Shown here: piece after piece, positions 2,899 through 29,325 of the stretch | Layout: each line of letters opens with the position of its first letter | Numbering within the stretch: position 1 is the first letter of the stretch | DNA from: Candidatus Omnitrophota bacterium | GTDB taxonomy: Bacteria; Omnitrophota; Gorgyraeia; Zapsychrales; JAHFFX01 | Direction of reading: 5' to 3' | Assembly (NCBI GenBank): GCA_023247725.1 | Contig: JAHFFW010000010.1 | Location: 7,734 to 71,733 of the forward strand | Length of the DNA: 64,000 nucleotides | The notes under the pieces: generated by a model | What the model was told of the DNA's origin: nothing | What the model saw: only the letters and a program-made list of their open reading frames with translations | Database searches by the model: none | Program-made: the position numbers and the translations under genes

Positions 2899-3000
2899 AA
2901 GAATTTTCAGTATTTCTGAACCAGTTTATTGACTTTGTATTCTTATTGATGATAGGTTGAGATTGTAAATAAATTTAGGGGGACGCCTCTAAATTTACCA

Positions 3001-3050
3001 AGCGGCAGTTCAGGTGCCTGAACCACTTGACTGCCGCTTTTTCTTTTTTG
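3001..3050 (+). terminator. rho-independent terminator (nested hairpin + U-run)
   Basis: AAGCGGCAGT...ACTGCCGCTT forms a 10-bp stem enclosing the inner GTTCAGG-TGC-CCTGAAC hairpin, followed by TTTTTCTTTTTT. Confidence 0.6.
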
Positions 3051-3077: not shown

Positions 3078-3533
3078 ATGCGACGTGCCATTTTCATGGG
3101 TTTGATTTTGGTGTTTTTTCTTTGCGGTCAAGCCTTCGCGCAGTGCGTTTGGAAGATTCAGTCCGTTGAGCAGGACCCGGACAGAGGATCGATCCTGGTC
3201 GTGACCCAGTATACGCTCAATGGTCAGGTGGCGCAGGTCGGGCATACGCGTTATGACGAGCAGAGCGGAGGTTTGGCAGACATCAAACTATTGATTCAAA
3301 AGGATCTTCAAGATCATTGTGCGGCTTTAATCCGCAGGATCCCGGAGAACGATGATTTTATACAGCTGGAAACCTTAAAGGCGCAGAAAGAATTGACCCA
3401 GCCGTTAATCCAGGCGCTTCAAACGGAAGCTGGGAAATCAGAATCAGTCAAACAGTCAGTCATTATCTGGAAGAGCAAGACAATAACGGTTACCGATGAC
3501 AGCAAGAATTCAATATCTAATATTATTCCTTAG
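3078..3533 (+). CDS. small secreted protein (signal peptide), unknown function
   Basis: RBS GAAGGAGGG precedes ATG 3078. The N-terminus MRRAIFMGLILVFFLCGQAFA-QC is a typical Sec signal peptide. No homology recognised. Confidence 0.5.
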   Translation: MRRAIFMGLILVFFLCGQAFAQCVWKIQSVEQDPDRGSILVVTQYTLNGQVAQVGHTRYDEQSGGLADIKLLIQKDLQDHCAALIRRIPENDDFIQLETLKAQKELTQPLIQALQTEAGKSESVKQSVIIWKSKTITVTDDSKNSISNIIP

Positions 3534-4323
3534 CCTGATTTTTGTTTCTCCAGCTTTCGGGGCAACGGATTGGACAGCAAACGCCAATACCAGGATAGCC
3601 CATAAGTTCGAAGAAACTTCCGGCAATTACCTGGATTCTTCGTCAAACGGGAATAACGGCATTATCGAGGGCTCTGTTACGAGAGGGTCTACCGGCAAAT
3701 TTGGTTCTTTGGCAGTTCAATTTACTGAAATTAATAATGCCGCCGTCCGCATTAATTCCTCCACGTCCTTAAACAATATCGATCCCATAACGGTTTGTGT
3801 TTGGGCTAACAACAATAGCGACGGGCAAAATAGCGTAAATACTTCGGATGCAGGATATGTCATCGAAAAGAATATTCGTTCTTGGATGCTCGCGCTAAAG
3901 CAAACCAATAAATTGAGATGGCTGGTTCATTATTCCGGCGGCAATACGCCTTGGGATACTTCTAATGCGGTTGTCGGCTACGGAACTTTCGAGCATTATG
4001 CGGTGGCTCACCAAAGAAGCGCTGGCGCCTCCCCTAAGCCGGTCATGTATGTCAACGGTGTTTCCGTAAGTTTGACCTCACCAAGTCCGTTTGGAACCAT
4101 TGATAACGATGCGGGGTCGCACATATATATCGGCATTTCAACCACAGGTGGTGTCAATGAGGCAGACGCCATATATGACGAGTTGTTGGTAAACGCGGCC
4201 ATACTGACGGCGACGGACATTAATGAGGTCATGGATTGCGGGCTGGATGGTTTGCAGTGCGCAGGGGCAACCTATTCGGGACGAGGATTAGGCCGCGGTT
4301 TTGGAAGAGGGATTGTGCGATGA
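3496..4323 (+). CDS. secreted LamG/concanavalin A-like lectin-fold protein
   Basis: Signal peptide MTARIQYLILFLSLIFVSPAFGA. The body has a LamG_3-like pattern (..VCVWANNNSDGQ..YVIEKN..W.L.LKQTNKLRW..HYAVAH....PVMYVNGVSV) and a Gly/Arg-rich C-terminus. Confidence 0.5.
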   Translation: MTARIQYLILFLSLIFVSPAFGATDWTANANTRIAHKFEETSGNYLDSSSNGNNGIIEGSVTRGSTGKFGSLAVQFTEINNAAVRINSSTSLNNIDPITVCVWANNNSDGQNSVNTSDAGYVIEKNIRSWMLALKQTNKLRWLVHYSGGNTPWDTSNAVVGYGTFEHYAVAHQRSAGASPKPVMYVNGVSVSLTSPSPFGTIDNDAGSHIYIGISTTGGVNEADAIYDELLVNAAILTATDINEVMDCGLDGLQCAGATYSGRGLGRGFGRGIVR

Positions 4324-6749
4324 GAAAAATATTGATTCTGGTTTTGGCGATTCTTTTATTCCCTTTGCCGGTGTACGCCGTTGAAATGGTCCGACAGAAA
4401 AATCAGGCTACCTACATCATGTTTCCGATTGTGGATGCCGATGGCGATGCGGTTTCCGCAGCTGCGGGACTGGACAGCGAAATCGATACCTGGTCCGATG
4501 GGACGGCTCCCAACGGCTTTGTGGACTGCACGAATGAAGCCACCGAGGTGGGGACTAACGGCGTTTATTATTTGAGCCTTACCGCGGCGGAGATGAACGT
4601 CGACTATATCTACATTCAGGTTAAAACCACAACTACCGGAGCCAAGACACAGCACATTTTAATCCGTACCCTTGTTGGGGATCCGCTGAATCTGGCCACC
4701 ACAGACGACGGCAGTGCGATTAACGTGACGTCCGGAGCCGTCGATACGGTTGCCAGCGTTTCCAACGATGTGGGAATTTCTCAAGCCGGCGCCGATAAGG
4801 TTTGGTCAACCACAACCAGAGCACTGACGGATAAAACCGGTTTCCGGTTATCAGCCTTAGGTGTTGACGATATCTGGGACGAATTGACGTCCGGCCACAC
4901 CACGGCAGGCAGTTACGGGAAGCTATTAACGGATAATATTGACGCTACGATCAGCAGCCGGTCGAGCCATGCGGCCGCGGACGTGTGGTCGGTAGGCACT
5001 CGCACCATCACCGGCGGCACCATTGACATCAATAATGACAAGTCCGGTTACAGTTTAACGCAAGGATTTCCAACAAACTTTTCTTCATTGGCAATTACCG
5101 TTGGCGGGGCCGTAACAGTTGGCACCAACAACGATAAGACCGGGTACACGGTTTCAACGGTTCAGGACAAGACGGGATATTCTTTGACGCAGGCCTTCCC
5201 GAGTAATTTTTCATCGCTGGCAATCACAGCGGGCGGGGCAGTGACAGCCGGGACCGTCAACGATAAGGCAGGATATTCTCTTTCTGCTTCCGGCATTGAT
5301 TCAATTTGGGATGAGTTGACCACCGGCCACACGACCACGGGTAGTTACGGGAAGTTGTTGACCGACAATATCGATGCGGCGATTTCCAGCCGGTCGACTT
5401 ATTCCGGCGGCGCGGTCGCCTCCGTTACCGGAAATGTCGGAGGGACAGTCAACGGATTAACGGCCACGGCCAAGACCGACGTTGAGAATGCGGTCTGGGA
5501 AGCAGCCGCATCAAGTCATAACAATGCCGGAACCATGGGCAATAAACTTAATTCGGCCGGAGATCCTTGGAACACCGCATTGCCCGGTTCATACGGTGCA
5601 GGAACGGCCGGGTATATCTTGGGAACGAATCTAAATGCGACCGTGGGCAGCCGTTCGACTTTAACCGCCGCGAATGTTTGGGATACAGACCTCTCCGGAT
5701 ATTCGACAGCGAATCTGGCCGGTACGCTTCTTAAGGGTGCCGGATCCGCGGGCGATCCCTGGTCAACGACGATCCCCGGAGCGTATGGAGCTGGAACAGC
5801 CGGTTACATTGTTGGCAACAATCTTAACGCGACCGTGGCCTCAAGAAGTTCTCACAGCGCCTCGGATGTTTGGGCTGTGGGGACCCGGACGGTTACTGGC
5901 GGCACGGTTAGCAACGTCACCAATGGTGTCACCGTTTTAACGAACAACGATAAAACCGGATACAGCTTAACGCAGGCCTTTCCCACCAATTTTTCAGCCC
6001 TTTCGATTGATGTCAGCGGCCGCATGGACCTTGGAAAATGGGTTGGCAATGCGCCGAACGCGCTCATTTCAGGGCGCGTAGATTCTAACGCCCAGGTCGT
6101 GGGCGATAAGTCAGGATATAGTTTAATCCAATCGTTTCCGTCCAACTTTTCCAGTCTTGCCATCACTGCCGGTGGAGCGGTCACGGTCGGAACGAATAAC
6201 GACAAGACTGGTTATGCTCTGACTTCTACACAAGAAGATGCGATTGTCGATAAAGTCTGGGATGAATTAAGGAGTGCTCACGTTACAAGCGGATCCTTCG
6301 GCCAAGGCGTGGCATCAATACAAGGCAATGTGACAGGGAGCGTCAACAGCGTTACATCGGGGGTTACGGTTTCAACAAACAACGATAAATCGGGATACCG
6401 TTTAAGCGCATCAGGCGTGGATGACATTTGGGATGAACCTCAGAGCGGTCATACCGGCGCGGGGACCTTCGGGAAATATCTGGATGTTCAATTGTCATCG
6501 ATTACAGCGCCTTCAGCGGCGACCATCGCAAGTGCTGTCTGGGAAGAAACGTCGAACCATGTGACTGACGGGACGATGGGCAAGAAATTAAACGACGCCG
6601 CGTTAGCAGGGGATCCTTGGGCGGCAGCTGGCATTTGTGATGGGTTAACCGCCGGGCAATGTTTGAGCGGTATTAAAGATGCAACGGACGGTGATAAAGA
6701 AGGCTCTGACTATACGGGCATCGAGAAGGCCATCCGTGCGCAGAGGTAA
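4320..6749 (+). CDS. large secreted repeat-rich protein (about 810 aa from ATG 4320)
   Basis: Signal peptide MRKILILVLAILLFPLPVYA, then an ~110-aa N-terminal domain, then many degenerate tandem repeats (NNDKTGYSLTQAFPSNFSSLAITAGGAVTVGT; IWDELTSGHTTAGSYGKLLTDNIDA.ISSRS; GDPWSTTIPGAYGAGTAGYI.G.NLNATV.SRS). Low-complexity G/S/T/A-rich composition. Confidence 0.6.
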   Translation: MRKILILVLAILLFPLPVYAVEMVRQKNQATYIMFPIVDADGDAVSAAAGLDSEIDTWSDGTAPNGFVDCTNEATEVGTNGVYYLSLTAAEMNVDYIYIQVKTTTTGAKTQHILIRTLVGDPLNLATTDDGSAINVTSGAVDTVASVSNDVGISQAGADKVWSTTTRALTDKTGFRLSALGVDDIWDELTSGHTTAGSYGKLLTDNIDATISSRSSHAAADVWSVGTRTITGGTIDINNDKSGYSLTQGFPTNFSSLAITVGGAVTVGTNNDKTGYTVSTVQDKTGYSLTQAFPSNFSSLAITAGGAVTAGTVNDKAGYSLSASGIDSIWDELTTGHTTTGSYGKLLTDNIDAAISSRSTYSGGAVASVTGNVGGTVNGLTATAKTDVENAVWEAAASSHNNAGTMGNKLNSAGDPWNTALPGSYGAGTAGYILGTNLNATVGSRSTLTAANVWDTDLSGYSTANLAGTLLKGAGSAGDPWSTTIPGAYGAGTAGYIVGNNLNATVASRSSHSASDVWAVGTRTVTGGTVSNVTNGVTVLTNNDKTGYSLTQAFPTNFSALSIDVSGRMDLGKWVGNAPNALISGRVDSNAQVVGDKSGYSLIQSFPSNFSSLAITAGGAVTVGTNNDKTGYALTSTQEDAIVDKVWDELRSAHVTSGSFGQGVASIQGNVTGSVNSVTSGVTVSTNNDKSGYRLSASGVDDIWDEPQSGHTGAGTFGKYLDVQLSSITAPSAATIASAVWEETSNHVTDGTMGKKLNDAALAGDPWAAAGICDGLTAGQCLSGIKDATDGDKEGSDYTGIEKAIRAQR
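4780..6520 (+). repeat. intragenic degenerate tandem repeat array (~35-40 codon units, at least three repeat classes)
   Basis: Recurring nucleotide and peptide units inside CDS 4320..6749 (DKTGYSLTQ x6 or more, GSYGKLLTDNID x2, GDPW..A/IPG.YGAGTAGYI x2, VWDEL/IWDEL x5). Confidence 0.6.
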
Positions 6750-6751
6750 GT

Positions 6752-7255
6752 ATGGATTACATCCAGGTCAATAAAGTTCATACGGAAGTGGTTGGTATCC
6801 CCGAATCAAATAGCGGGCATACCGTCACGTTCCAAGTTTATAAGGCCAGCGATAATTCTTTGTTTGCGTCCGGAGCGGCGGTTTATGTCGGCGGATTGAA
6901 TTGGAAAATAAGTTTCATGCCGACTTCTTTGGATGTCTATGCCGTTGATGTTCATAACCTAGACTTGGATGTCACGTATTCCAGGAGTGTTCAAGCAGTT
7001 AGCAGCGTCACTTTATCCCAGCCGGTAGGTGATGAGGAAACGACACCTACAATAAATGAGTTGATTGAATTGATCGATAAAGCCATTGCGGCGAGATTAC
7101 GTGGCGGGGCGGCGCAGTCCTATTCCATCGGCGGACGCAATTTGCAGTATATGACGTTGTCCGAACTTAGAAGCTTACGTGCCGAATTAAATAAACAATT
7201 GGCCGCCCAGAAAGGCGGCGGACGAAATTATGCAAAGTTTGTCGACCCAGACTAA
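6752..7255 (+). CDS. gpW-like head-tail joining protein with an N-terminal extra domain
   Basis: C-terminal SYSIGGRNLQYMTLSELRSLRAELNKQLAAQKG resembles lambda gpW (...[24 protein letters not shown]...). Positioned between terminase and portal as in lambda. The N-terminal ~100 aa are unrelated. Confidence 0.5.
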   Translation: MDYIQVNKVHTEVVGIPESNSGHTVTFQVYKASDNSLFASGAAVYVGGLNWKISFMPTSLDVYAVDVHNLDLDVTYSRSVQAVSSVTLSQPVGDEETTPTINELIELIDKAIAARLRGGAAQSYSIGGRNLQYMTLSELRSLRAELNKQLAAQKGGGRNYAKFVDPD

Positions 7256-8852
7256 AAAAACATTTGCGGACAGGGTGGATGATTTCATCGGAGTCTTTTC
7301 ACCCTATGCGGCGGCCAAACGCAAATATTTTCGTTTTTTGACAAGTTCGCTTTTGAGCGCTTACCGGGGAGCCGATATCGGCCGCTTGCGAGGATCATGG
7401 ATCCCGGGCGGCGGGTCAGCTGATTCCGATTTACATCCTGATCTTTCAAAACTGCGTGAACGCAGCCGGGACCTGATTCGCAATGACGGCATTGCCTCAG
7501 GGGCAATCGATACGGTTATCACCAACATCATTGGATCGGGCATTCAGATGCAGAGCCGCATCGATAAAGATACGTTGGCCGTTGGCGAGGAAATTGCCGA
7601 CAAACTTCAAAATCAGATCGAACACATCTGGGACCGATGGGTGCCCCATGCGGACGCCGGAAACAGGTTGAGCTTTTATGGGCTGGAGGAATTATCGGAG
7701 CGGCAAAGGTTCATTAACGGCGAATCGATCATTGTTCCGCTACGCATCGCCAACTCAAAAAAGAAAAGACCATATTCGCTGGCTTTACAGACGATCGAAT
7801 CCGACAGGCTGGATACACCGAGCGATTTAAGATCCAACAAAAACATTCGGGCCGGTGTGGAGGTCGGTGAGTACGGGGAACCTGTCGCCTATTACATTCG
7901 CAAGAACCACCCGGGAGATTTTCTCTATGGCCGCCGGTACGGCAATTCCAGCGAGAATTTCATCAAGTATCCGGCCTTAAACGATCTGGGAGATCCCAAC
8001 GTTTTTCATTTGTACCATGTGAAACGATCCGGGCAGACACGGGGGGAACCGTTTTTCTCACCCGTATTGAATATGTTTAAAGATCGCGTGGATTACATGG
8101 AAGCGGAAATCGTGGCCGCGCGCGTGGCGGCGTGCTTTGCGATCTTCATCAAGAAAACAAATTCTTACGAAGTCAGCCTGGCGAGGTCGAAATCCGAAAG
8201 CAACAAGCGCGTCGAAGAATTAAGCCCGGCGATGATCGAGTATTTGAACGAGAACGAAGAAATCCAGCCGTTTAATCCGAATCGTCCTGGCGGGACCTTC
8301 GGGATATTCATGGAACGGGTCCTTCGCGACATATCCGCCGGGTTAAACATCCCTTACGAGATTCTGGCCAAAGATTTTTCAAGGTCGAATTATTCCAATA
8401 CCCGGGCGGCCTTACTGGAAGCGCGTAGGTTTTTCATGATGCAACAGCGTTTTGTTTCAGAGAATCTTTGTCAGCATATTTTGGTCATGCTTTTGGAGGA
8501 GGCCTATTTAAAAGGTGAACTGTCGATTCTAGACTTTTATCAGAACCGGGATGCTTACGTGCGGACCCGCTGGATTGCCCCGGGGTGGCAGTGGGTGGAT
8601 CCGGAAAATGAGGTCAAGGCTTCTGTGGATGCCGTGGACAACAACCTCTCGACTCTGGCTGAGGAGGCAGCCGCCCAGGGGCAGGACTGGGAAGAAAATT
8701 TGGAACAACGAGCCAGAGAACTCAAAAAGATTAAGGATTTGGAACAGAAATACGGCGTTGATATGACCGTTGATAAAGAAAAGAAACCGGAGAGAGTGAC
8801 GGATGGCAAAAAGCCGGAACCTCAAGGGCAAAGCGCCCCGCAGGAAAACTAA
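7230..8852 (+). CDS. phage portal protein, lambda gpB family
   Basis: LRGSWIPGGGSADSDLHPDLSKLRERSRDLIRNDGIASGAIDTVITNIIGSGI mirrors the conserved lambda-type portal N-terminal region (RLRGDW..SADSDI..LRQRSRQLVRNN). Size is 540 aa. Position follows W. Confidence 0.85.
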   Translation: MQSLSTQTKKTFADRVDDFIGVFSPYAAAKRKYFRFLTSSLLSAYRGADIGRLRGSWIPGGGSADSDLHPDLSKLRERSRDLIRNDGIASGAIDTVITNIIGSGIQMQSRIDKDTLAVGEEIADKLQNQIEHIWDRWVPHADAGNRLSFYGLEELSERQRFINGESIIVPLRIANSKKKRPYSLALQTIESDRLDTPSDLRSNKNIRAGVEVGEYGEPVAYYIRKNHPGDFLYGRRYGNSSENFIKYPALNDLGDPNVFHLYHVKRSGQTRGEPFFSPVLNMFKDRVDYMEAEIVAARVAACFAIFIKKTNSYEVSLARSKSESNKRVEELSPAMIEYLNENEEIQPFNPNRPGGTFGIFMERVLRDISAGLNIPYEILAKDFSRSNYSNTRAALLEARRFFMMQQRFVSENLCQHILVMLLEEAYLKGELSILDFYQNRDAYVRTRWIAPGWQWVDPENEVKASVDAVDNNLSTLAEEAAAQGQDWEENLEQRARELKKIKDLEQKYGVDMTVDKEKKPERVTDGKKPEPQGQSAPQEN

Positions 8853-8932: not shown

Positions 8933-10093
8933 ATGACCATGAGCAAAATTTTAATCGAAGAAGACAGGCTTGAAAAAGCTTTCGGAATCAAAGAGGGAAA
9001 GTCCGGTATTGATCGGTCTTATGAAGATGATTATTACAAAGGCGTCATTAAAGGATTTGCCGTCATCACCAAGGGTTTTGTAAAAGACGATCGCGGATGG
9101 GAGATCGATGACGTCACCCTTGAGCAAACGGTCGCGGCAGGCAACAGGATCACAGGTGGTCTTAAGTCACGGTTTGGTCATCCCAATTTGTGCGAGACCG
9201 CATTTGGAAAATTAATCGGAAGGGCAAGGAATCTCAGAAAAGATGGCGACATTGTTAGAGCGGATCTTTATTTAAACAAAAGTGCTTATGGTGCGCCCGC
9301 GGGGAATCTTGCTCAATACGTTTTGGATTTGGCGGAAAGCGATCCCGAAGCATTCGGAGCTTCGGTGGTGCTTGAAGAATACGAGCTGGAATACCCGATA
9401 GAGAAAAACAGCGTCCGCAAGAAAGACGAAGACGGCAAAGCACTTCCGCCCATGCTGAGGGTGAAGTCTCTGTTGGGGGTCGATATGGTGGACGAACCTG
9501 CGGCCAACAACGGAATATTCAGCAAAATCAACCACCCAGGTCTTGAACTCTCGGCGAAGGCCACGGCGTTTTTGAATAAACTTCTCGACAACCCCGATGC
9601 GCTGGAATTCGTGATTGTATTTCTGGAAAGGTATCGAGCCAATCGGGCTGACATAGATGCAGGGAAAAAACAACCTAAACAAGTTTCAAATAAGAAGGAG
9701 GAGGGCATGGAGATAAAAGATTTAACGGTAGAGGAGCTGAAGAAAGAACGACCGGACATGGTTTCGGTTTTGCAAAACGAAATCGTCAAAGATGAGCGGT
9801 CCCGGTGTTCAGCCATTGTCAAGGCGGCAAACAAGGAGTTTGCCAGCATGGGCATGGAGGTCATCGTTGAGGAAGCCATTGATAACGGCAAGACCGTGGA
9901 CGCGGCTTTGGCGGCCATGCGCGGGAAACGTCTTGAGGATCTCAAGCAGAATGCCAACAAGGCCCCAGGTGCCGACAAAGGTGATCCGGAAAAGACAAAG
10001 AGTCACTTGGAGGTCGCAAAGGAGTATCAAAGGGAGCATAAATGCAGTCTTCAGGAAGCCCTTAGCATGACGGCTGAACCAAGGGAAAAGTAA
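8933..10093 (+). CDS. prohead protease (HK97/S78-like) fused to a scaffold-like C-terminal region
   Basis: GFAVITKG..DDRGWEIDDVTLEQ....SRFGHPNLCETAFGKL...DGDIVRADLYL fits the S78 protease core with a candidate catalytic His in FGHPN. The C-terminal half is charged and coiled-coil (scaffold-like). Position lies between portal and decoration/capsid genes. Confidence 0.55.
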   Translation: MTMSKILIEEDRLEKAFGIKEGKSGIDRSYEDDYYKGVIKGFAVITKGFVKDDRGWEIDDVTLEQTVAAGNRITGGLKSRFGHPNLCETAFGKLIGRARNLRKDGDIVRADLYLNKSAYGAPAGNLAQYVLDLAESDPEAFGASVVLEEYELEYPIEKNSVRKKDEDGKALPPMLRVKSLLGVDMVDEPAANNGIFSKINHPGLELSAKATAFLNKLLDNPDALEFVIVFLERYRANRADIDAGKKQPKQVSNKKEEGMEIKDLTVEELKKERPDMVSVLQNEIVKDERSRCSAIVKAANKEFASMGMEVIVEEAIDNGKTVDAALAAMRGKRLEDLKQNANKAPGADKGDPEKTKSHLEVAKEYQREHKCSLQEALSMTAEPREK

Positions 10094-10132: not shown

Positions 10133-10855
10133 ATGTCACAGGAAAATTTGGGATCAAAGTCTTTCGTTGCCGGTGAAGATTTGGAAGCGTATCGTCGCGT
10201 CAAGCTTTCCAGCGGGAACGTCGTCTACGCCGATGCCGGGGAAGAGTTTATCGGCGTCACCGGGCATAAGGCCGTAAGCGGTGAGCAGGTCACGGTCAAT
10301 TTAAGGTCGGCATCGCGCACTTACAAGATGGTTGCCTCCGGAGTCATAACCGCTGGGAATACGATTTATGGCGCCAATGACGGCAAAGTTTCAGCTTCGG
10401 CATCGGGGGTTGCCCAAGGTGTGGCTGTTGAAGCGGCTACAGCAGACGGTGATGTTATCGAGTGTTTCCAGAATAATGGCGTGGCCGGTGCTATCGATGG
10501 GGCATCTACGGCTATAGGTGATCCTGCTGTCAACGGAGCTGTTCCCGTTGTTTTTGCCAAACAGGGTATCACCGATGCGACCACATCTTTAACGATTGTG
10601 ACAGCGCCGTACAAATTCAGGATCGTTGATTGGTGGATTATTGCCCGGGATACCACAGCGGCCAACGTCAAATTAATCAATGTCAGCACCGATGCAACAG
10701 CCGTTAAAGCCAAGGGAACGACAAACGATGCCATCGTCAGAGGCGGGGACATCATAAATGCTCAAAAAGACGTGTCAGCCGGGAATGCCTTGAAAGTCAA
10801 TGCCAGTGCGGCCGCGGCTTTCGACATCTTTGTTGTGGCGATCAAAGTCAGCTAA
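10133..10855 (+). CDS. head decoration / capsid cement protein (DUF2190-like N-terminal domain)
   Basis: N-terminus SFVAGEDLEAYRRVKLSSGNVVYADAGEEFIGVT...GEQVTV matches the decoration-protein pattern. It sits immediately upstream of the major capsid gene, as lambda D does to E. Confidence 0.5.
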   Translation: MSQENLGSKSFVAGEDLEAYRRVKLSSGNVVYADAGEEFIGVTGHKAVSGEQVTVNLRSASRTYKMVASGVITAGNTIYGANDGKVSASASGVAQGVAVEAATADGDVIECFQNNGVAGAIDGASTAIGDPAVNGAVPVVFAKQGITDATTSLTIVTAPYKFRIVDWWIIARDTTAANVKLINVSTDATAVKAKGTTNDAIVRGGDIINAQKDVSAGNALKVNASAAAAFDIFVVAIKVS

Positions 10856-10889: not shown

Positions 10890-11852
10890 ATGCCAGTCGA
10901 TCAAGTAGGAATAAGAGCAACACCGCGGTTAGATTTAGGCGCGGCTTTGGAGGAGTACGTCCAGAACGCCGGTGATTTTATCGGGACGAGGCTGTTCCCG
11001 ATCTTCAAAACACCGCAGAAGGCCGCCAATTTTTCCGCCATCACGCGCGAGAGTTTAACGCAAACGCCGGACACTAAACGCGCGCCCAACGGGAAATATA
11101 ACCGCGGAAGTATCGGGGCAAAGGACGTTGGATACAGCTGTGAGGAGAACGGGTTTGAAATGCCGCTGGATGACGGCGAACGCAAGAATTACGCCAAGGA
11201 CTTTGACGCGGAGCTGGCCGTTTCCAAGGCAGCCATGAACATCGTTCTTCGGGGACAGGAATCCCGCATTGCCGCGGCCGCCATAAATACGTCCGTATTC
11301 ACCGGGGCGGCTCTTTTGACGGACGTGTCCGGAACCAATCCTTGGAGCGATCCCACCAAGGACATCATCAAAACCATAAGGGATGGTAAGGCAAAGATCA
11401 GAACGAACTGCGGCATGTTGCCCAACATGCTCTTGATGAGTTATACGAACCTCAATCTGTGTTTGGGCAATAACGGTATCAAAGATGCTATCAAATACAC
11501 CGCGCGGCCGACAGAGGCTGAAATCATCAATGCCTTAAAAGACCTTTTCGGTGTTCAAAACATTCTTATCGGCAACGCCATCAAAAACAGTGCCAAGGAA
11601 GGGCAGGTGTTTTCTGGGGCCGATATCTGGAGCTCGACTTATGCCTTATTAGCGATATCTGCTCAGGACGGTCAGGATCCAACACAACCGTCTCTGGGCA
11701 GAACGTTTTTATGGGCGAATGACAGTCCGGAGAATGTGATGGTTGAGCAATACCGTGATGAGTCCATTCGTTCCGACGTTTTCCGTTCGCGCCAGCATAC
11801 AGATGAGCTGTTGCTTGATAAGTATTTCGGGCATCTTTTAAAAGTCGTTTAA
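10890..11852 (+). CDS. major capsid protein (lambda gpE-like family)
   Basis: 320 aa, follows the decoration gene, RBS GGAGGG upstream. Size and position fit the E-family major capsid protein. Confidence 0.65.
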   Translation: MPVDQVGIRATPRLDLGAALEEYVQNAGDFIGTRLFPIFKTPQKAANFSAITRESLTQTPDTKRAPNGKYNRGSIGAKDVGYSCEENGFEMPLDDGERKNYAKDFDAELAVSKAAMNIVLRGQESRIAAAAINTSVFTGAALLTDVSGTNPWSDPTKDIIKTIRDGKAKIRTNCGMLPNMLLMSYTNLNLCLGNNGIKDAIKYTARPTEAEIINALKDLFGVQNILIGNAIKNSAKEGQVFSGADIWSSTYALLAISAQDGQDPTQPSLGRTFLWANDSPENVMVEQYRDESIRSDVFRSRQHTDELLLDKYFGHLLKVV

Positions 11853-14935: not shown

Positions 14936-15249
14936 GACTGGCAGTCTGGCTTAGTTTTTCCAGAGGCCAGCTGGACTGCCCGAAACTTAAATCACAGGCC
15001 AAGGACAATCAGTGCGCTAAGGAGGAATGTGAGGATAGCATTTGGAATTTCAACGGCGAGGAATTTAAGGGGTGTCCGGTCAAGAAGATCAGTGCAAGGA
15101 GCTGGGAGTATTTAAGGGCGTTCATATTCTACAACCGGGGATTTCTGCCGAATCCGGGCGGATGGATTGACCAACCTAAAAAGTTTATGCGGGCGATGGA
15201 GATCATCGAATTCGAGATGATCAATATCAAAGAAAAAGAGGGAAAGTAA
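14510..15249 (+). CDS. tail assembly chaperone GT-like fusion produced by programmed -1 ribosomal frameshift
   Basis: The -1 frame from 14917 is open for 111 codons with no ATG start (..KKLRLAVWLSFSRGQLDCPKLKSQAKDNQCAKEECEDSIWNFNGEEF...GWIDQPKKFMRAMEIIEFEMINIKEKEGK*). It ends in TAATG, overlapping the tape-measure start. Slippery site A AAA AAC is at 14926-14932. Confidence 0.55.
14926..14932 (+). promoter_or_regulatory. -1 programmed ribosomal frameshift slippery heptamer A_AAA_AAC
   Basis: X_XXY_YYZ motif in the zero frame (gca aaa aac) two codons before the gpG-like stop. Confidence 0.5.
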
Positions 15250-16796
15250 TGCCAACGAATCGCGAACTTGAAATCATCATGCGGCTTCGTGATGAAGTAA
15301 CGAAGCGATTGAAAGGAATCGAGGGCGCCTTTATCCGTTTTAAAAACGCCGTCAAGGAACTGGGCACTCACATGAAGCAGCTGGGCCGGGATATTTCGCA
15401 GGTCGGCCATGCCGTGAGTCTTTTGGGGGCGTCAATCACCGGCCCCATGCTTCTGGCGTTCAGGAATTCCACGGAATACTCGTCACGCGTCAGCGCCCAA
15501 ATGGAACGGCTCAAGAACGTCACAACGGCTTTTCAGATTACTATCGGTGAGGCTTTGGCGCCGATTATGGAAAGGTTTACGAACATTCTTGGGGCCCTTC
15601 TTGACCGGTGGAATGCTCTTGGACCCGTCCAGCAACAGGCGATTATCCAGGCAACGTTCATGGCCGGTGTGTATTTGACCGCTACGGGAATCATCACAAC
15701 GATGACCGGCAAAATCATTGCCCTTGCCGGTGGAGTGCTGAAATTAGCCGCGGCGTTTTTGAGTCTGTCGGGGAGTCAAATGGCGCTTGTCGCGTTGATT
15801 GCGGCCGTGGCGGCTCTTATTTTGTACTGGGACAAGCTTGGCAAGGTAGCGGTCCCGGTTCTTAACGCGCTTGAGATTGGATCCAAGATGGTTGCTATCG
15901 GATTTCTGTCGATCGTCCGTGTCATCAATCAGGCGTTATCGGCGATGCTGGATAAGGCATCGCTCATATACGAAAAGGTCAGTCAGTTCAAACTGCTTCC
16001 CGAGAGCATGAAGGTCAATTACAGCATTGCGGCGTTATCTCTAAAGGATATGTCGAATCAACTGCGGGCGAATGCGTCGATCACGGACAATTACATCAAA
16101 AGTCTGGAAGGAGGAATTTCGAAGATATTTCTCGAAGGGCAGGGGGATTTGGTCGTCTTTTTTGAAAATACTCATGCCAAGATCAAATCGATTTTTGATT
16201 TGTTTAAGAATCCGCCCAAGGTCGACATTCAGCCGATTGTAAAGCAATTCAATGCCATCAAGGACATCGCGCAGAATACGGCTCAGGCGATGAGTCAAAG
16301 TCTGGGTGATTTTTTCTTTAATGTCGTTACAGGTCAGCTCAACAATCTCAAGCAGGTATTCGCGGATTTTGGAAGAAGCATCCTACGGATCCTATCCAAT
16401 GCCCTAGCCAAACTTCTGTTGGTTAAAACAATCGGCCGGATGTTTCCGGGGCTTGGGCAGTTTTTTCATCAAGGGGGAATGGTTTATCATGCCGGGGGCA
16501 TCATCCAGAGGGCGCATTCGGGGATGCTGGCCTCTGATGAGGTCCCGATCATTGCTCAATCCGGTGAAGGAGTTTTGTCCCGCCGGGGGATGTCGGCTTT
16601 GGGGATTGAGAATTTCAACCGGATCAATCGAGGCGAGAGGATGAGGGAGGGCGGCATCGAAATCAACATCCCGGTCATTATCCAAGCCTGGGATGTCCAG
16701 GATATCAATCGAAACAAGAGAGCCATCAGCGACATCGTTGGCGAGGCCATCCGGAACAACAGCTCTATTCGTGATCTTATAAGGAGATACACCTAA
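15249..16796 (+). CDS. tail tape measure protein
   Basis: 515 aa with coiled-coil N-terminus, central hydrophobic segments and C-terminal FHQGGMVYHAGGI..SGEGVLSRRG motif typical of tape measure proteins. Follows the G/GT pair. Confidence 0.8.
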   Translation: MPTNRELEIIMRLRDEVTKRLKGIEGAFIRFKNAVKELGTHMKQLGRDISQVGHAVSLLGASITGPMLLAFRNSTEYSSRVSAQMERLKNVTTAFQITIGEALAPIMERFTNILGALLDRWNALGPVQQQAIIQATFMAGVYLTATGIITTMTGKIIALAGGVLKLAAAFLSLSGSQMALVALIAAVAALILYWDKLGKVAVPVLNALEIGSKMVAIGFLSIVRVINQALSAMLDKASLIYEKVSQFKLLPESMKVNYSIAALSLKDMSNQLRANASITDNYIKSLEGGISKIFLEGQGDLVVFFENTHAKIKSIFDLFKNPPKVDIQPIVKQFNAIKDIAQNTAQAMSQSLGDFFFNVVTGQLNNLKQVFADFGRSILRILSNALAKLLLVKTIGRMFPGLGQFFHQGGMVYHAGGIIQRAHSGMLASDEVPIIAQSGEGVLSRRGMSALGIENFNRINRGERMREGGIEINIPVIIQAWDVQDINRNKRAISDIVGEAIRNNSSIRDLIRRYT

Positions 16797-17136: not shown

Positions 17137-17747
17137 GAGCCATTAATTCAACATTCAAGACGGAAAAGAATAATGCCGCCAACAAGCCTATCCGGTTGTA
17201 TGCGCTTCACGATTATGACGGCCTGGGGACAAACCTTTATTTTGCCGAATACGATACGGATGTCACTTTTAACGGCATTGCCTACACCAAGTTTCCCATC
17301 ACCATAGATACGATTTCGGAAAACAATAAGGGCGCGATCGATTCCGTCAATCTTATCGTGGCGAACGTTTCCCGCTTTATCCAATTCTATTTGGAAAGCA
17401 AGGATCTGCGGGGCAAAAAGGTTTCCATAAAAACAGTGTGGGCGAATCAGTTAGCGGATACAAACGCCTACATCGAAGATGTCTTTTACGTCGATTCCTA
17501 TTCGGCGGATCAGGATAACGTTAATTTTATCCTAACGAGTAAATTCGACGTCCTGGATGTCGAACTTCCGTTGCGAAGGTATTCCCGGAATTATTGCAAT
17601 TGGAAATTTAAAGGCACTGAATGCGGTTATTCCGGGAGCGAATCGGTCTGTAACAAAACTAAGCAGGATTGTAAAACTACCAAAAATAATTTTAAGAGGT
17701 TCGGCGGGTTTCCTTCGATTCAATCCAACAGGATCCTTTTGGGATGA
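17133..17747 (+). CDS. minor tail protein, lambda gpL-like
   Basis: C-terminal YCNWKFKGTECGYSG.ESVCNKTKQDCK...NNFKRFGGFPSIQ matches lambda gpL (CTWTYRGDECGYSG...DKCSKCLSGCKFRNNVGNFGGFLSI). Confidence 0.8.
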   Translation: MRAINSTFKTEKNNAANKPIRLYALHDYDGLGTNLYFAEYDTDVTFNGIAYTKFPITIDTISENNKGAIDSVNLIVANVSRFIQFYLESKDLRGKKVSIKTVWANQLADTNAYIEDVFYVDSYSADQDNVNFILTSKFDVLDVELPLRRYSRNYCNWKFKGTECGYSGSESVCNKTKQDCKTTKNNFKRFGGFPSIQSNRILLG

Positions 17748-18166
17748 GGGACAAAGATATCATCAGGAAATATTTAGGGATCCCGTTTAAACACCGGGGA
17801 CGCGCAATCGAAGAAGGGCTGGATTGCTGGGGTCTCATCAAAGCGATCTATGCGGATTGCGGCATAGATTTATTCGACCTTGATTCTTACGAAGTCGACT
17901 GGCCGCAGAATGGCAGGAACCATTTTATGGAATATTACTGTAGGCAATGGGAAAAAGTCGACCGGCCGCAATTCATGGATGTTGTTTTGTTTCGGGCCTC
18001 ACCCATGGTGGTGAATCACGCCGGTTTAGTCTTGAGCGAATCCCGATTTATTCATGCGGCCCGGCCGGGTGTGGTTGTTTCCCGTCTTGGCGAACTGCAG
18101 GTCTTTAAGAAAATCGAGGGCTATTACAGGTTTAAAAATGATCAAGATAAAGTACATTCCCAATAG
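17744..18166 (+). CDS. tail assembly protein, gpK-like NlpC/P60 domain
   Basis: GLDCWGLIKAIY (catalytic Cys) ... VVNHAGLVL (His) in an NlpC/P60 fold. Sits in the lambda K position. Confidence 0.7.
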   Translation: MRDKDIIRKYLGIPFKHRGRAIEEGLDCWGLIKAIYADCGIDLFDLDSYEVDWPQNGRNHFMEYYCRQWEKVDRPQFMDVVLFRASPMVVNHAGLVLSESRFIHAARPGVVVSRLGELQVFKKIEGYYRFKNDQDKVHSQ

Positions 18167-21100
18167 ATTTGAACGTGCCGGGGTAATCGAGAAAGAGGTC
18201 TCATTCAGCCGGGAATTCCGGCTTCGCCATTATATTTCGGCCTTCGATGATCTCCCGCCGGTTGATTTTGAGAAATTCGATTGTATTGTTTCCGGGAAGA
18301 ACGTCAAGGATCTGGATCAATTCATCAATGACGGCGATGAAATTATCATCACTCCCAAGATCGAAGACCCGGGTACAATCTTTGGCATCATTGCCACCAT
18401 TGCGACCGCCTTAGGAGCATCCGCGACCGTTGCGGCTACAATCGCAACAATCGGTACGGCTATTGTCATCGGCGCCACTTTAGCGGCTATCGGGTATTCA
18501 ATCTATCTGGCCACACAAAAACCCAGTCTTCCTTCGTTTGGAACGACCTCCGGAGGCGGCGGTCTGGATGAGGGTTCGCCGACCTATAGCTGGGACGGGA
18601 TACGGACAAACCGCGACGTTAATATGCCGGTGCCGGTTATTTACGGAGAACATAAAGTGGGAGGGACAGCGGTCAATGAATACATCTGGACAGATGGGGA
18701 TAAGAATTTTTTGTACACGCTTCTTGCCCTTTGCGAAGGGGAGATAGAAAGTGTTTCCAATATCAAAATCAATGATAACCCGATTGCGAATTATTCCGGT
18801 GTATCGACAACGACAAAATTGGGGACGAACAGTCAAACGGTCATCCCGAATTTTGAAGATCTCCACAACATCATCTCGGTAAACATTCAGTTGCTTAAAG
18901 ACAGCTCGTATATTTATACGACCTTGGATAGCGATGTGGAGGCCTTTGAAATTAAGTTTAATTTCCCGGGCGGCCTTTACCAAGCGGACAGCGCAAGCGG
19001 CGAGATCCTTTCCTGGCAAGTTACGTATCGGGTGGAATACAAATTAGCCGCATCCGGAACATGGATCGATTTGGGGACAACGACCGTCAGCGAAAAGACG
19101 CGTTCGGCGATCAAAAGAGTTTTTCGTAAAGATGGTTTAACCGCGGGCCGTTACGATATCCGGGTAACCAGGACCTCGGAAAATTCTTCCTTAAGTCCGA
19201 CCAAACAGGGCGATCTCTATCTTCAAAGCGTTGATGAAATCAAAACTGATGATCTTTCTTATCCCAATACCGCACTTTTAGCTATTGAGGCGATCGCGCA
19301 GGAACAATTGTCCGGAGCATCGCCCAATTATAGTTGCGTTGTAAAGGGGAGGAAAGTGTCTGTGCCGCGGGTGATGAATGGCGGAGTTGAGGTTAATTGG
19401 GAAAACTATTATTGGGACCCGAATACAAATCAATTCAAATTATTAGCCGATTCGGCCGTGCTTTCTTGGGATGACACAACCTACGTTGATAAATGGTCGG
19501 CCAATCCCATTTGGTGCCTTAAGGATCTACTGACGAATACCAGGTATGGTTTGGGGGATTTCATCAATGCCTCGCAGATCGATTCCGCGTTGTTTTTGGA
19601 AATGGCCAAGTACTGCGAGGAACGCATTCCCGATGGATCTGGAGGCTATGAAAAGCGTTTCCGGTTGGATGTGGCCATTGACAGTGTAACCAAGGCCTTG
19701 GATCTAATCAATCAGCTTTCGGCCACATTCAATGCCTTCGCCTTTTATTCGGCAGGCAGCGTCAAGTTCTATATCGATAAGCCAGCGGATCCGGCGCAAG
19801 TCTTCGGGATGGGAAATATTATCGAAAATTCATTTCAACAATCTTGGAAATCCATTAAAGAAACGCCCAACATGATCGAAGTCCAATATCTCGATAGCGT
19901 CAAGGATTACGAACAGGAAACGGTTGCGATTATCGATGAGGCTTCTTTAACCGCCGGTGAGCCGATCAGAAAGCACAGGATCCGATTGTTCACAACCAAG
20001 ACTTCTCAGGCCTTAAGAATCGGCCGCTACGCGCTAAAGGTCGCGCAAAATATTGATCGCATCATAAATTTTAAGGCTTCAATTGATGCGATCGCCTGTC
20101 AGGTCGGTGATTTAATCGATGTTTCACACGATGTTCCGCAATGGGGTTTTTCGGGAAGGGTTAATTCTGGATCAAGTACCACCTCCATTGTCCTAGATCA
20201 GGAGATTACGATTGTTTCAGGGAAAACTTATAAGATGGAAATCAGATTTCCCGATGACGTCATTGAGGAAAGAACGGTTTCCAACGCGCCGGGCAACTAT
20301 ACAACATTGACCGTCAGCAGCGCCTTCAGCCAGGCCCCGGCCGCTTATTCGGTCTACGCGTTTGGTGAAACGGACATTCAAACGAAACCATTCAGGATTA
20401 TATCAATCCAGCGCGATAACAAGGATGAAGCGATCCTATCGGCGGTCGAGTATAACGCGGCGATTTATGACGATTCCGTGATAGTCATTCCGGCAAGCAA
20501 TTATTCCGCTTTGAGCCGTGACATTCCCGTGGTCACCAGTTTATCCATTGTGGAAAAGAACGTCATTCTAAGTGACGGAACGATAGGAAGTATCATCGAG
20601 GTTTATTTTTTAAAACCAATCCAAACCAGTTACCTGGTGTCGAGGTACAAAGAGGCCAAGATTTATCTTTCCGATGACAATGGCGTCAGCTGGCAGGCGG
20701 CCGGTTCCACCTCGGAAGAATTCTTTGCGACCAAAGACACTTTAAAAACAGGATCCAGTTATAAGGTGGCCGTTGTCAGCGTTTCTACCGAAGGGGCGGA
20801 AAGCTCGATAAATTCAAGCCCCCAGGCCTCGATAACGATTGCAGGCAAAAGCCTACCTCCGGCCAACATCACCGGCTTTGCTATCAGCCAACACGGCGAT
20901 CAGCTCAATTTAAGCTGGAATCCTGTCCCGGACTTGGATCTGGCAAGGTATGTCATTAAAAAAGGAAGTGAGTGGGCGACCGGCGATTTGATTGCGGAAA
21001 AGGTCGATGTGACGGAATTTTCATCGCCCATTGGCCAGATCGGCGAGCAGACGTACATGATCAAGGCAGTGGATACCTCCGGCAATGAAAGCGTAAATAC

Positions 21101-21866
21101 CGCCTTGTACACCATCAATGTCTCACCGCCGCCGGAGATGAATTTTGTCGTTCAGATCAATCCGTGGTCTTTAAACCGGGAATACAAGCTTGCCAATATC
21201 GCCAAAGAGCAGATGAGTCTTTACAGCCCCGATTATGCCAGGGATGTCTTTTCCTTGGTGACGACTTCCACATGGGAGGACAAAGAAGCCCTGGGGCAGG
21301 GGTGGGAGCAACTGGAGGCCTCTGGCGACTTAGACTTTAATAAACTTTTTACCGCATCGGGAGAGATTGAGCAAATCATCCCCTATGATTTGGGCACCAT
21401 ATTTGAATTTAACATTCTCTCGGACCTAAGATTTGAGAATGTTTCCGGCGGTAGCTTGACCCTTCAGATCTCCACAAGCGAAGACGGAGTGAATTATACG
21501 GCCTTTGCCAATGTCAACGCATCCACCAATTATCGAGCGAGGTATCTTAAGTTCAAATCCCTTCTGGCCACATCCGACAGCAACAATAATATTTATTTCT
21601 ATTCCGGAACGATTTTTGTTAACGCGCCCACCGTCAAGGTGGACTATGGCCGAAATCTTTTGGTTTCAGCCAGCGGGACCCACGTTACTTTTCGGGGAGA
21701 TTTTACCGCGGTCCCGCGCGTAACCAGTCTGAATATCGTCAATGGAATTAAAGGCCGGCCGTATTCAAATAATGTGGCAATGAGCGGCATGGATATTTAT
21801 GTGGCCGATAAAGACGATGTTTTAATCGGCACGGCCCGGATCGATTGGGAGGTTAAAGGAAGCTGA
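18138..21866 (+). CDS. fused gpI-gpJ-like tail tip / host specificity protein with FN3 domains
   Basis: N-terminal ~200 aa resemble lambda gpI (ubiquitin-like N-terminus, hydrophobic Gly/Ala-rich segment IIATIATALGASATVAATIATIGTAIVIGATLAAIG, then ...MPVPVIYGEHKVGGTAVNEY, compare ...VLPVLYGEMRVGSRVVSQ). The remaining ~1000 aa are J-like with FN3-type segments (LPPANITGF..SQHGDQLNLSWNPVPDLDLARYVIK). Start taken at ATG 18138 (MIKIKY). Confidence 0.75.
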   Translation: MIKIKYIPNRFERAGVIEKEVSFSREFRLRHYISAFDDLPPVDFEKFDCIVSGKNVKDLDQFINDGDEIIITPKIEDPGTIFGIIATIATALGASATVAATIATIGTAIVIGATLAAIGYSIYLATQKPSLPSFGTTSGGGGLDEGSPTYSWDGIRTNRDVNMPVPVIYGEHKVGGTAVNEYIWTDGDKNFLYTLLALCEGEIESVSNIKINDNPIANYSGVSTTTKLGTNSQTVIPNFEDLHNIISVNIQLLKDSSYIYTTLDSDVEAFEIKFNFPGGLYQADSASGEILSWQVTYRVEYKLAASGTWIDLGTTTVSEKTRSAIKRVFRKDGLTAGRYDIRVTRTSENSSLSPTKQGDLYLQSVDEIKTDDLSYPNTALLAIEAIAQEQLSGASPNYSCVVKGRKVSVPRVMNGGVEVNWENYYWDPNTNQFKLLADSAVLSWDDTTYVDKWSANPIWCLKDLLTNTRYGLGDFINASQIDSALFLEMAKYCEERIPDGSGGYEKRFRLDVAIDSVTKALDLINQLSATFNAFAFYSAGSVKFYIDKPADPAQVFGMGNIIENSFQQSWKSIKETPNMIEVQYLDSVKDYEQETVAIIDEASLTAGEPIRKHRIRLFTTKTSQALRIGRYALKVAQNIDRIINFKASIDAIACQVGDLIDVSHDVPQWGFSGRVNSGSSTTSIVLDQEITIVSGKTYKMEIRFPDDVIEERTVSNAPGNYTTLTVSSAFSQAPAAYSVYAFGETDIQTKPFRIISIQRDNKDEAILSAVEYNAAIYDDSVIVIPASNYSALSRDIPVVTSLSIVEKNVILSDGTIGSIIEVYFLKPIQTSYLVSRYKEAKIYLSDDNGVSWQAAGSTSEEFFATKDTLKTGSSYKVAVVSVSTEGAESSINSSPQASITIAGKSLPPANITGFAISQHGDQLNLSWNPVPDLDLARYVIKKGSEWATGDLIAEKVDVTEFSSPIGQIGEQTYMIKAVDTSGNESVNTALYTINVSPPPEMNFVVQINPWSLNREYKLANIAKEQMSLYSPDYARDVFSLVTTSTWEDKEALGQGWEQLEASGDLDFNKLFTASGEIEQIIPYDLGTIFEFNILSDLRFENVSGGSLTLQISTSEDGVNYTAFANVNASTNYRARYLKFKSLLATSDSNNNIYFYSGTIFVNAPTVKVDYGRNLLVSASGTHVTFRGDFTAVPRVTSLNIVNGIKGRPYSNNVAMSGMDIYVADKDDVLIGTARIDWEVKGS

Positions 21867-22210
21867 TGGAAGGGTATTGTCAAAGTTGCGGACAGATAGT
21901 CGACATGGAGAACGTCCAGACCGTGCGGCTTCCTAATTTATCTTTTATTCAAAAAGGGATTTGCAGCCGGAAAGATTGTTTGGGCGTTATCTTTAAACTT
22001 GTAGAGGATCATGAAATTATTATTAATGCGGCCGGACATAAATTTCCTAAGGAAGTTTATGTTGGTCCTGAAACGCCGAGAAAATTGTTCGATAAGGACA
22101 ACGGACAGACGATTTTTAAAGGGAATGAAATTGTAAGAACAAAACTTAAGAACGATCAGATCAAAACAGTAAAAGAAATCAAGGAGAAATTAAATGGCCG
22201 ACGAGATTAG
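21866..22210 (+). CDS. hypothetical Cys-rich small protein (possible tail fibre assembly factor)
   Basis: 114 aa with CQSCGQ...C....C. Lies between the J-like gene and the tail fibre gene. Confidence 0.3.
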   Translation: MEGYCQSCGQIVDMENVQTVRLPNLSFIQKGICSRKDCLGVIFKLVEDHEIIINAAGHKFPKEVYVGPETPRKLFDKDNGQTIFKGNEIVRTKLKNDQIKTVKEIKEKLNGRRD

Positions 22211-23993: not shown

Positions 23994-24236
23994 ATGTCAG
24001 ATAACGAAATCCACTTAACACCGAGGGAACTGGAAGAAATCAAAGACGATGTTGCTTTTAAAACAAAAACAACATTGACGTTAAAGCATGTTTTAAAAAA
24101 GCTCGATGATCTAAACGGGGTCCGGGATGAGGTCACCTCATTAAAGACACACCGGAACATCCATTGGTTTTTGATTTCGGTCATTATCACCGGACTATTC
24201 GGGATCACGTTTTGGTTGATGCAAGGGAATCATTAA
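23994..24236 (+). CDS. XhlA-like lysis-associated membrane protein
   Basis: 80 aa with N-terminal coiled coil (LEEIKDDV...LKKLDDLNGVRDEVTSLK) and a single C-terminal TM (WFLISVIITGLFGITFWL). Same architecture as the XhlA haemolysin family. Confidence 0.45.
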   Translation: MSDNEIHLTPRELEEIKDDVAFKTKTTLTLKHVLKKLDDLNGVRDEVTSLKTHRNIHWFLISVIITGLFGITFWLMQGNH

Positions 24237-29322: not shown

Positions 29323-29325
29323 ACT

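Follow-up and report, generated by a model that had tools for sequence, protein, structure and literature searches.

What is a repeat-built protein with an export signal doing among the head genes of a phage? The question is raised by a 64,000-nucleotide stretch of DNA (hereafter the window) from contig JAHFFW010000010.1 of the Candidatus Omnitrophota assembly GCA_023247725.1. Judged by gene content, the 5′ part of the window is a lambda-like prophage of an Omnitrophota-like bacterium. The gene in question is an open reading frame (ORF) at positions 4320-6749, within the block of head genes. An earlier account of this DNA, made from its letters alone (the original prediction), described the product as a secreted protein of degenerate repeats that may act as an adhesin, an S-layer-like protein, or an exclusion factor, possibly together with the LamG protein encoded directly upstream. 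Our favored reading, which we hold tentatively, is that the two proteins form an adhesion module, in which a fiber stalk and a glycan-binding partner would be associated with the head or neck of the virion and would be exported by the Sec pathway in this lineage. An accessory fiber with a glycan-binding partner is suggested by the kinship of the protein to phage fibers, by its conserved end joined to a mosaic shaft, by the position of the gene in or next to the head block, and by the tight packing of the operon.

The ORF runs from an ATG at 4320 to a stop codon ending at 6749 and encodes 809 amino acids (aa), the length also given by gene callers on three other assemblies. The 837 aa stated in the original prediction are reached only from a TTG at 4236, from where translation would cross the last part of the LamG gene in another frame. 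The stop codon of LamG and the ATG share bases (ATGA), and a GAGGG Shine-Dalgarno-like sequence lies upstream. A frameshift fusion of the two genes was considered and is unlikely because the signal peptide would become internal. The identical 809-aa protein is found on four contigs of the ENA and Logan collections, and an NCBI copy is listed as well; the samples are possibly not independent.

The protein begins with MRKILILVLAILLFPLPVYA, predicted to be cleaved before VEM. This segment comprises an n-region (MRK), a hydrophobic core, and a small-residue site at −3/−1, and these features, together with a conserved pattern in the relatives described below, bear out the signal peptide that had been proposed. 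In an AlphaFold2 (AF2) model of the full-length protein (60-sequence alignment), the per-residue confidence (pLDDT) exceeds 90 only at residues 21-120, which form a β-sandwich, in agreement with the globular N-terminal domain (N-domain) expected after the signal peptide. Modeled alone, this domain reaches a pLDDT of 91.5 and a pTM of 0.80. It has many near-invariant positions across 60 homologs and is acidic (mean net charge −8.7 in 65 homologs). The linker that follows is also conserved, with near-invariant positions G120, P122, A126, G131, I134, and V136. The shaft has a pLDDT below 50 in this monomer model, as would be expected if the fiber is oligomeric. Confidence rises again to about 77-80 in the last ~40 residues. 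The C-terminal region contains a degenerate GDPW unit and a Cys-x7-Cys pair and ends in …DGDKEGSDYTGIEKAIRAQR.

Repetition at the protein level, central to the original prediction, is plain in a self dot-plot (BLOSUM62), in which 487 20-aa windows scored ≥45, compared with 0 in each of 20 shuffles. The windowed plot was used because self-BLASTP returned the diagonal only. Repeats cover 569 of the 809 residues and span residues 163-761, with copies that are 33-65% identical, and the three unit types interleave in place of a simple tandem array. The first, a ~32-aa unit (DKTGYSLTQxFPxNF…GGAVTVGTNN), has four full copies (residues 239-270, 282-313, 543-574, and 595-626), not the six or more previously counted; only its DKxGY head (DK[TSA]G[YF]) recurs more often, with nine occurrences in all. 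The second type (IWDE/AVWE…H…GxxGxxL) lies at residues ~177-229, 321-372, 386-411, 638-667, 695-728, and 733-761, and its IWDE form has two close and two divergent copies. The third (GDPW…LPGxYGAGTAGY…SxR) is present in two full copies (414-446 and 478-510) and a degenerate one. By our own reading of the sequences, the three types may share a deeper motif, W-x4-6-[GS][HY]-x3-G[ST]xG-xx-L. No other ORF of the window shares these repeats.

The corresponding DNA copies share only 70-81% identity, no exact repeat within the gene is longer than 12 nt, and Tandem Repeats Finder (TRF) reported no array save one 20-nt microrepeat. The repeats are thus not conserved at the nucleotide level, and the proneness to slipped-strand variation that had been deduced from such conservation falls with it. 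Relatives do differ in length by whole units. In P0003, with ~85% identity in the aligned part, precisely one 43-aa block is missing, and P0002 has a 93-aa insertion that corresponds to three units. Compared across these sequences, such change is best described as evolutionary-scale variation, not heterogeneity within a population.

The repeat family, which the original prediction did not recognize, is indeed absent from the resources searched. No significant match to the protein was obtained in Pfam, PHROGs, NCBIfam, PADLOC, or Protein Data Bank (PDB) sequences, and neither the full-length protein nor a profile built from 35 sequences of the GDPW unit gave a usable result against PDB sequences. 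The sole Pfam match, to PF21387 Gp6_C-I (the C-terminal domain I of the T4 baseplate protein gp6), scored 22 bits against a gathering threshold of 27, with no stretch passing alone. Weak matches to Gp6_C-I also occur in 12 of 60 relatives (best E = 7.6e-6), and we treat the score as a probable short motif resemblance. A tblastn search of 50,697 deposited phage genomes gave two weak metagenomic matches and none to a cultured phage. A HMMER scan of 1.84 billion cluster representatives (clusters at 50% identity) recovered 7,738 family representatives at E ≤ 1e-3, of which 3,574 remained at ≤ 1e-10 and 612 at ≤ 1e-30; a word-indexed search gave more than 2,577 matches. The members are built of the same units in differing number and order, and some have inserted globular domains. 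These patterns mark a large unannotated family of putative mosaic phage fiber proteins, with hardly any members in the deposited phage genomes searched.

The kinship to fibers appears in the PHROG comparisons. Among 60 aligned relatives, matches were found to the tail-fiber families 892 (three relatives), 21412 (three), and 28766 (two), and to the virion structural family 32822 (two), with best E-values of 1e-4 to 7.5e-14, indicating modules common to those families and to the fiber family. The window protein itself matches none of the four; the matches probably sit in inserted or distal modules that it lacks. By these sequence relationships, the protein is clearly of the phage fiber type. The original prediction had named a match to a well-known phage structural repeat protein as an outcome that would count against it; no such match was found, yet some relatives hit PHROG tail-fiber families. 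According to the titles of metagenome-assembled genomes (MAGs), the loci with the same N-domain come from Omnitrophota, Planctomycetales, Phycisphaerae, and Sedimentisphaerales, with one short contig binned to Bacteroidota. A separate observation concerns P0101, a 559-aa relative with the same units (locus L030, 457-2136), whose start, MTHKKGFTLMELLVGG…, reads as a type IV prepilin cleavage/methylation motif. Its contig spans just 3.3 kb, and the gene that follows matches Pfam PF24163 (HCP). From this sequence, the repeats may also be used on pilus-like cell-surface filaments.

Structure searches, suggested in the original prediction with a β-helix or Ig-like fold in view, gave a divided answer: the N-domain is Ig-like, and no fold could be assigned to the repeats. 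Searched with Foldseek, the full model returned nothing beyond the generic Ig fold. The N-domain against the PDB gave generic Ig folds, led by 7qg9_L from the T5 tail tip (E = 6e-4, TM 0.39, 14% identity), with antibody V-domains scoring nearly as well. From its 140-residue length, we take 7qg9_L to be the T5 collar protein p132. The best matches in BFVD (TM up to 0.66) were the N-termini of uncharacterized Caudovirales proteins, a "tail protein," and actinophage "minor tail proteins"; others included a BppU-domain protein and a head-to-tail adaptor with an extra domain.

The link to the LamG protein that had been suspected proved to be real, and it rests on two features reported here for the first time: a conserved tail that ends the upstream partner, and signal peptides carried by both proteins or by neither. 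The LamG partner consists of a signal peptide (…SPAFG, with predicted cleavage before ATDW), a LamG/ConA-like lectin domain (Pfam Laminin_G_3, E = 1.1e-11), and a C-terminal tail, and it has only seven close homologs. Across loci, the ORF that ends directly before the fiber gene varies in length (65-590 aa), and several of these ORFs are LamG-like. The tail YSGRG[ILVMF]GRG[ILVF]xRG[IV]xR-COOH closes the ORF in at least 15 loci, and degenerate G-φ-G-x tails do so in five more. The fiber genes paired with this tail encode the mature N-terminus [LI]E[LI]VRQKN…, a pairing also present in the window (N-domain from 4380). Conversely, the tail is missing from the LamG partner in L004, where the fiber begins with another N-domain. 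Synonymous variation among the tail codons shows that the constraint lies on the protein, and the overlapping ribosome-binding site and start codon cannot by themselves account for the conservation of the tail. The tail carries four arginines (+4), a charge complementary to that of the N-domain. We infer that the tail docks on the N-domain and that partner and fiber form a complex in one compartment. A model in which the variable part of the partner is an adaptor fitted to the capsid type was rejected: the L017 capsid is 90% identical to that of the window, and the partner is unrelated.

Of the ~65 relatives with this N-domain, the majority combine a basic n-region with a hydrophobic core and an AxA-type site before [LI]E[LI]VRQKN, although the sequences themselves differ. 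Several independent relatives have no signal peptide and start with M-E-[LI]-VRQKN, within a residue of the predicted mature end. An in-frame stop lies 1-5 codons upstream of these starts, which are therefore not truncated gene calls. The mature fiber protein thus appears to be the same with or without export, and because the signal-peptide-less orthologs start at the mature end, its function does not depend on export as such. Since both forms share the mature end, the function is probably exerted after lysis. The partner follows the fiber in this respect: signal peptides are found on both proteins in 17 loci and on neither in four independent loci (L007/L011, L013, L020, and L023), with no discordant case. 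In the window, a third protein of the same gene group, the 151-aa product of the gene upstream of LamG, also has a predicted signal peptide (MRRAIFMGLILVFFLCGQAFA, cleaved before Q) and a GGAGG Shine-Dalgarno sequence before its ATG at 3078. It has no family match in Pfam, PHROGs, or NCBIfam, and homologs occur in L003, L004, L008, and L010. A role as a spanin was considered for this protein and rejected from sequence, since it lacks both a lipoprotein partner and an Rz1-like ORF, whether embedded or overlapping.

Gene order places the pair in the head block. Thirty-one loci were retrieved in all. Wherever the context was readable, head genes surround or adjoin the partner-fiber pair. It is placed between terminase and portal in the window, L003, L004, L008-L010, L012, L014, L017, L020, and L021; between the capsid gene and the connector/tail genes in L007, L013, L016, L018, L019, and L022; and, in L015, upstream of the terminase gene. 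Several unrelated terminase, portal, and capsid families are represented among these loci, and even L020, with the same arrangement as the window, has terminase and portal families that differ from those of the window lineage. Farther afield, a relative with a signal peptide and another N-domain lies between Mu Gp36/Gp37 genes and a tail tube gene, and another relative, which has no signal peptide and a different N-terminus, lies beside a collar-domain fiber gene. The original prediction's S-layer-like role is disfavored by this placement in a prophage head block and by relatives in phage structural modules; no SLH or other anchoring domains were found in Pfam or NCBIfam, and the gene is phage-borne in all contexts examined. 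Its exclusion-factor role fares no better, since none of the three proteins matches PADLOC defense or exclusion families and signal-peptide-less orthologs exist. "Adhesin" remains a reasonable functional class.

The gene group is also packed into the head operon. The fiber start overlaps the partner stop, and the gpW-like adaptor gene begins 3 nt past the fiber stop, so the three genes form part of the head operon. Between 3650 and 7400, the plus strand yielded no terminator-like site. Upstream, the 180-nt spacer that follows the terminase block contains a leader with a promoter-like TTGACT-17-(TG)ATAGGT element (~2929-2957), a hairpin (2970-2995), and a terminator-like hairpin with a T-run (3001-3050). 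The syntenic prophages L003 and L004 share the leader, with compensatory changes in its stems. It has an RNA fold z-score of −5.1, contains a hairpin motif unique in the window, and matches no Rfam family. Its elements are a putative promoter and terminator, and their layout resembles a late promoter under antitermination, such as the lambda PR′-tR′ pair, in which a late promoter and terminator are governed by antitermination. This arrangement suggests that the three-gene cassette is transcribed along with the head genes.

Under our favored reading, positions 3078-6749 would be a three-gene cassette of the late head-gene block whose core is the two-protein adhesion module. The 809-aa protein would be the stalk, composed of the acidic Ig-like N-domain, a mosaic of recombining units of ~11-45 aa, and a small C-terminal domain. 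The LamG protein would be the carbohydrate-binding subunit, with its basic tail (YSGRGxGRGxxRGxxR-COOH) docked onto the stalk's acidic N-domain. The complex may be an accessory virion fiber, with head or neck attachment suggested by gene position, and would make reversible first contact with glycans on the host surface, while recombination would change the number of repeats and swap the distal parts. In this lineage, with hosts of the PVC group (Omnitrophota and Planctomycetota), both subunits and the 151-aa protein would be made with cleavable Sec signal peptides; once exported, they would fold in the periplasm, and only the breach of the membrane at lysis could bring them into contact with capsids. 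It is physically plausible that finished particles are decorated outside the cytoplasm, as the decoration proteins Hoc, gpD, and Dec bind mature capsids in trans. This specific version, in which a Sec-exported stalk and lectin joined by a Gly/Arg tail and an acidic Ig-like domain are loaded onto finished particles at or after lysis, is in our judgment rather unlikely. If true, it would constitute a periplasmic or extracellular step of virion maturation, not described for tailed phages, and a docking pair previously unrecognized.

The nearest architectural analog among known systems is gp76 of the Caulobacter phage phiCbK, a candidate head filament of 2,799 aa that is glycine-rich and has a built-in ConA-like lectin domain (PMC3556154). 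It is encoded nearer the head than the tail genes, with a proposed role in primary, reversible attachment, but it is only a candidate and was not detected in virions (PMC3556154). The two share a large repeat-expanded fiber, a ConA-like lectin, and a head-proximal gene. They differ in that the gp76 lectin lies inside one polypeptide, whereas that of the window is separate and would be joined via the tail, and the passages on gp76 give no signal peptide, whereas one is predicted for the window fiber. In T5, p132 is described as an Ig-fold structural protein that anchors the long tail fibers and is linked to BppU (T5 paper). The window fiber resembles p132 and the BppU of TP901-1 in having an Ig-like sandwich at the N-terminus of a fiber-type protein, although the matches are weak, and those are tail-tip or baseplate proteins whereas the window gene lies in a head block. 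Neither p132 nor BppU has a signal peptide. The phi29 head fiber gp8.5 and T4 fibritin are dispensable capsid or neck fibers with a presumed role in adsorption, and their genes lie among those for the head or neck. They have helical or coiled-coil repeats, assemble in the cytoplasm, and have no separate lectin partner; their likeness to the window fiber is one of description only.

Several points weigh against a virion-associated module. The fold matches of the N-domain are weak (TM ~0.4 in the PDB and up to 0.66 in BFVD), and for the repeat region, with pLDDT below 50, the fiber geometry is itself something that we infer. Capsids assemble in the cytoplasm, where virion fibers are made, and the window fiber has a predicted Sec signal. 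The three cassette proteins are the only proteins of the phage structural region in the window with signal-peptide features. We know of no documented tailed-phage virion fiber exported by Sec, and literature searches on phage fibers with signal peptides and on Omnitrophota prophages returned nothing relevant. Moreover, the cassette moves apart from the virion genes. The N-domain is 54-95% identical across phages with unrelated capsid and portal families. In L008, the cassette (151-aa protein, LamG, and fiber N-domain) is 81-95% identical to that of the window, compared with ~54% for portal and capsid, whereas the distal fiber is only 36% identical; this contrast implies sharp recombination boundaries on both sides of the block formed by the partner and N-domain. 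The reverse is seen in L017, where the capsid is 90% identical and the partner different. Such swapping is hard to reconcile with an N-domain that binds a lineage-specific virion protein.

The export signals and the swapping lend some weight to an alternative that we regard as possible though less probable than the module, namely that the proteins are moron-like cargo absent from the virion and exported to the periplasm or cell surface, where they would act on the envelope as a lysogen adhesin, as a receptor mask or superinfection barrier, or, once released at lysis, as a binder of debris or neighboring cells. All three cassette proteins have cleavable-looking Sec signals, several with Cys pairs, and the prepilin-like N-terminus of P0101 would place the repeats on cell-surface filaments too. 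Besides occurring with unrelated capsids, the cassette sits at gene-block boundaries, where morons of lambdoid phages typically insert. Lambda-type morons such as lom and bor encode exported envelope proteins from within the late structural operon of a temperate siphophage; each is one small gene that has a promoter and terminator to itself and is expressed in the lysogen. A promoter-like element does lie just upstream of the window cassette, but a strong terminator hairpin follows it at once, which is more like an antitermination-controlled late promoter than a constitutive one. No terminator follows the cassette, which is instead translationally packed against the gpW-like and portal genes. 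An 809-aa fiber in a three-gene cassette is also unlike lom and bor, and so are the relatives in which both fiber and partner are signal-peptide-less: such pairs would be stuck in the cytoplasm, with no action on the envelope. The absence of PADLOC matches likewise speaks against this alternative.

An ordinary tail or side-tail fiber (a receptor-binding protein) that is merely encoded away from the tail genes, and whose hydrophobic N-terminus has no role in export, is improbable. The PHROG tail-fiber matches of family members, the relative adjoining a collar-domain fiber gene, and the resemblance of the N-domain to "tail," "minor tail," and BppU-domain N-termini are all in keeping with it. Yet the phage already has gpJ and a collar-domain fiber in the usual place, neither these nor other window ORFs share the repeats, and the N-domain genes lie in or next to the head block in every readable locus. 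Moreover, the n/h/c layout and AxA-type site, found in most N-domain relatives, are wholly missing from the signal-peptide-less forms. Finally, a contingency-type gene or an assembly artifact, with an array that is unstable or was collapsed or expanded, is largely refuted and very unlikely, because, although close relatives differ by whole units, the gene has diverged DNA copies with no near-identical tandem repeats and the identical protein recurs on the other assembled contigs.

The coordinates of the features are collected below. Past ~25 kb, the window contains defense and host genes. A matching gene order is also found in an Omnitrophota MAG and on a 515-kb contig, where a serine recombinase is adjacent.

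Table. Positions in the window of the cassette, the parts of its fiber gene, and the surrounding prophage genes.
Feature	Position	Strand	Basis or remark
GpA-type large terminase	735-2663
Small Zn-ribbon ORF, 90 aa	2626-2898		Four Cys; overlaps terminase gene end; 35-77% identity, same place in related prophages
Conserved leader upstream of cassette (putative promoter and terminator)	2929..3050	+	In 180-nt spacer between terminase block and cassette
151-aa protein, first cassette gene	3078..3533	+	ORF; same length from gene callers
LamG partner protein, 275 aa	3496..4323	+
Partner C-terminal tail, YSGRGLGRGFGRGIVR	4273..4320	+	Conserved across otherwise unrelated partner proteins
Fiber ORF	4320-6749	+
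Predicted Sec-type signal peptide of fiber protein, residues 1-20	4320..4379	+	Predicted cleavage after VYA
Acidic Ig-like N-domain, residues 21-120	4380..4679	+	AF2, conservation
Conserved linker (GDPLNLATTDDGSAINVTSGAVDTV…), residues 121-162	4680..4805	+	Near-invariant positions; AF2 confidence low
Repeat body, residues 163-761	4806..6602	+	Self dot-plot, motif positions
C-terminal region, residues 762-809 and stop	6603..6749	+	Conserved in P0003, P0007, P0015, P0024, P0026
167-aa protein, gpW-like head-tail adaptor C-terminal half	6752..7255	+
Phage_portal_2 portal	7230-8852
ORF in scaffold/protease position	8933-10093		No family match
240-aa protein	10133-10855
Major capsid protein	10890-11852		PHROG 1005
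Tape measure protein	15249-16796
gpJ	18054-21866
Collar-domain tail fiber	22194-23981

Some of these neighbors have features of their own. Residues 97-158 of the 167-aa adaptor match the PHROG 118 head-tail adaptor (E = 1.1e-8), and the protein scores 27.6 bits against NCBIfam phage_HTJ, under the cut-off of 33. It bears an additional N-terminal β-rich domain of ~95 aa, with a weak fn3 match in Pfam (residues 20-92), for which no sequence similarity to the fiber N-domain was found. A similar β-rich domain is also a standalone small ORF just upstream of the adaptor in L012 (14347-15110) and L017 (12898-13700), and a BFVD match to a 290-aa Streptomyces phage "head-to-tail adaptor" suggests that extended adaptors recur. 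The 240-aa protein has no match in Pfam, PHROG, or NCBIfam, is 50-91% identical in related prophages, and is encoded where a decoration protein would be expected, after the ORF in scaffold/protease position and before the major capsid gene. A 140-aa ORF at 17744-18166 has, by eye, an NlpC/P60 (gpK-type) look. At 23994-24484, 3′ of the tail fiber gene, two small ORFs (80 and 106 aa) with one hydrophobic helix each look holin-like; no endolysin was recognized in the window prophage. In L007, whose fiber is a signal-peptide-less relative, a GH108 endolysin and a small membrane protein (6073-6977) lie inside the head block, a few genes upstream of the pair, and a 512-aa protein with a faint pectate-lyase-like β-helix match directly precedes the 65-aa partner. 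Just right of the window prophage is a defense island (25945-32562) with an HKD(PLD)+Snf2 helicase (PADLOC C3a139, E = 1e-53) followed by a Type IIG restriction-methyltransferase (PADLOC REase_MTase_IIG, 1022 bits). Four co-oriented genes at 33939-37072, which include a ThiF-family E1-like protein (34442-35323), may be a defense or ubiquitin-like system.

Naming the repeat family and its units would allow thousands of "hypothetical" proteins in environmental viromes to be labeled as fibers or adhesins. The pairing of tail and N-domain provides a testable docking rule, which could flag glycan-binding partners that show no detectable homology among themselves. The paired signal peptides raise the question of whether virion accessory proteins are routed through the periplasm. 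For the hosts themselves, the cassette is one of the few handles on how phages recognize Omnitrophota and Planctomycetota.

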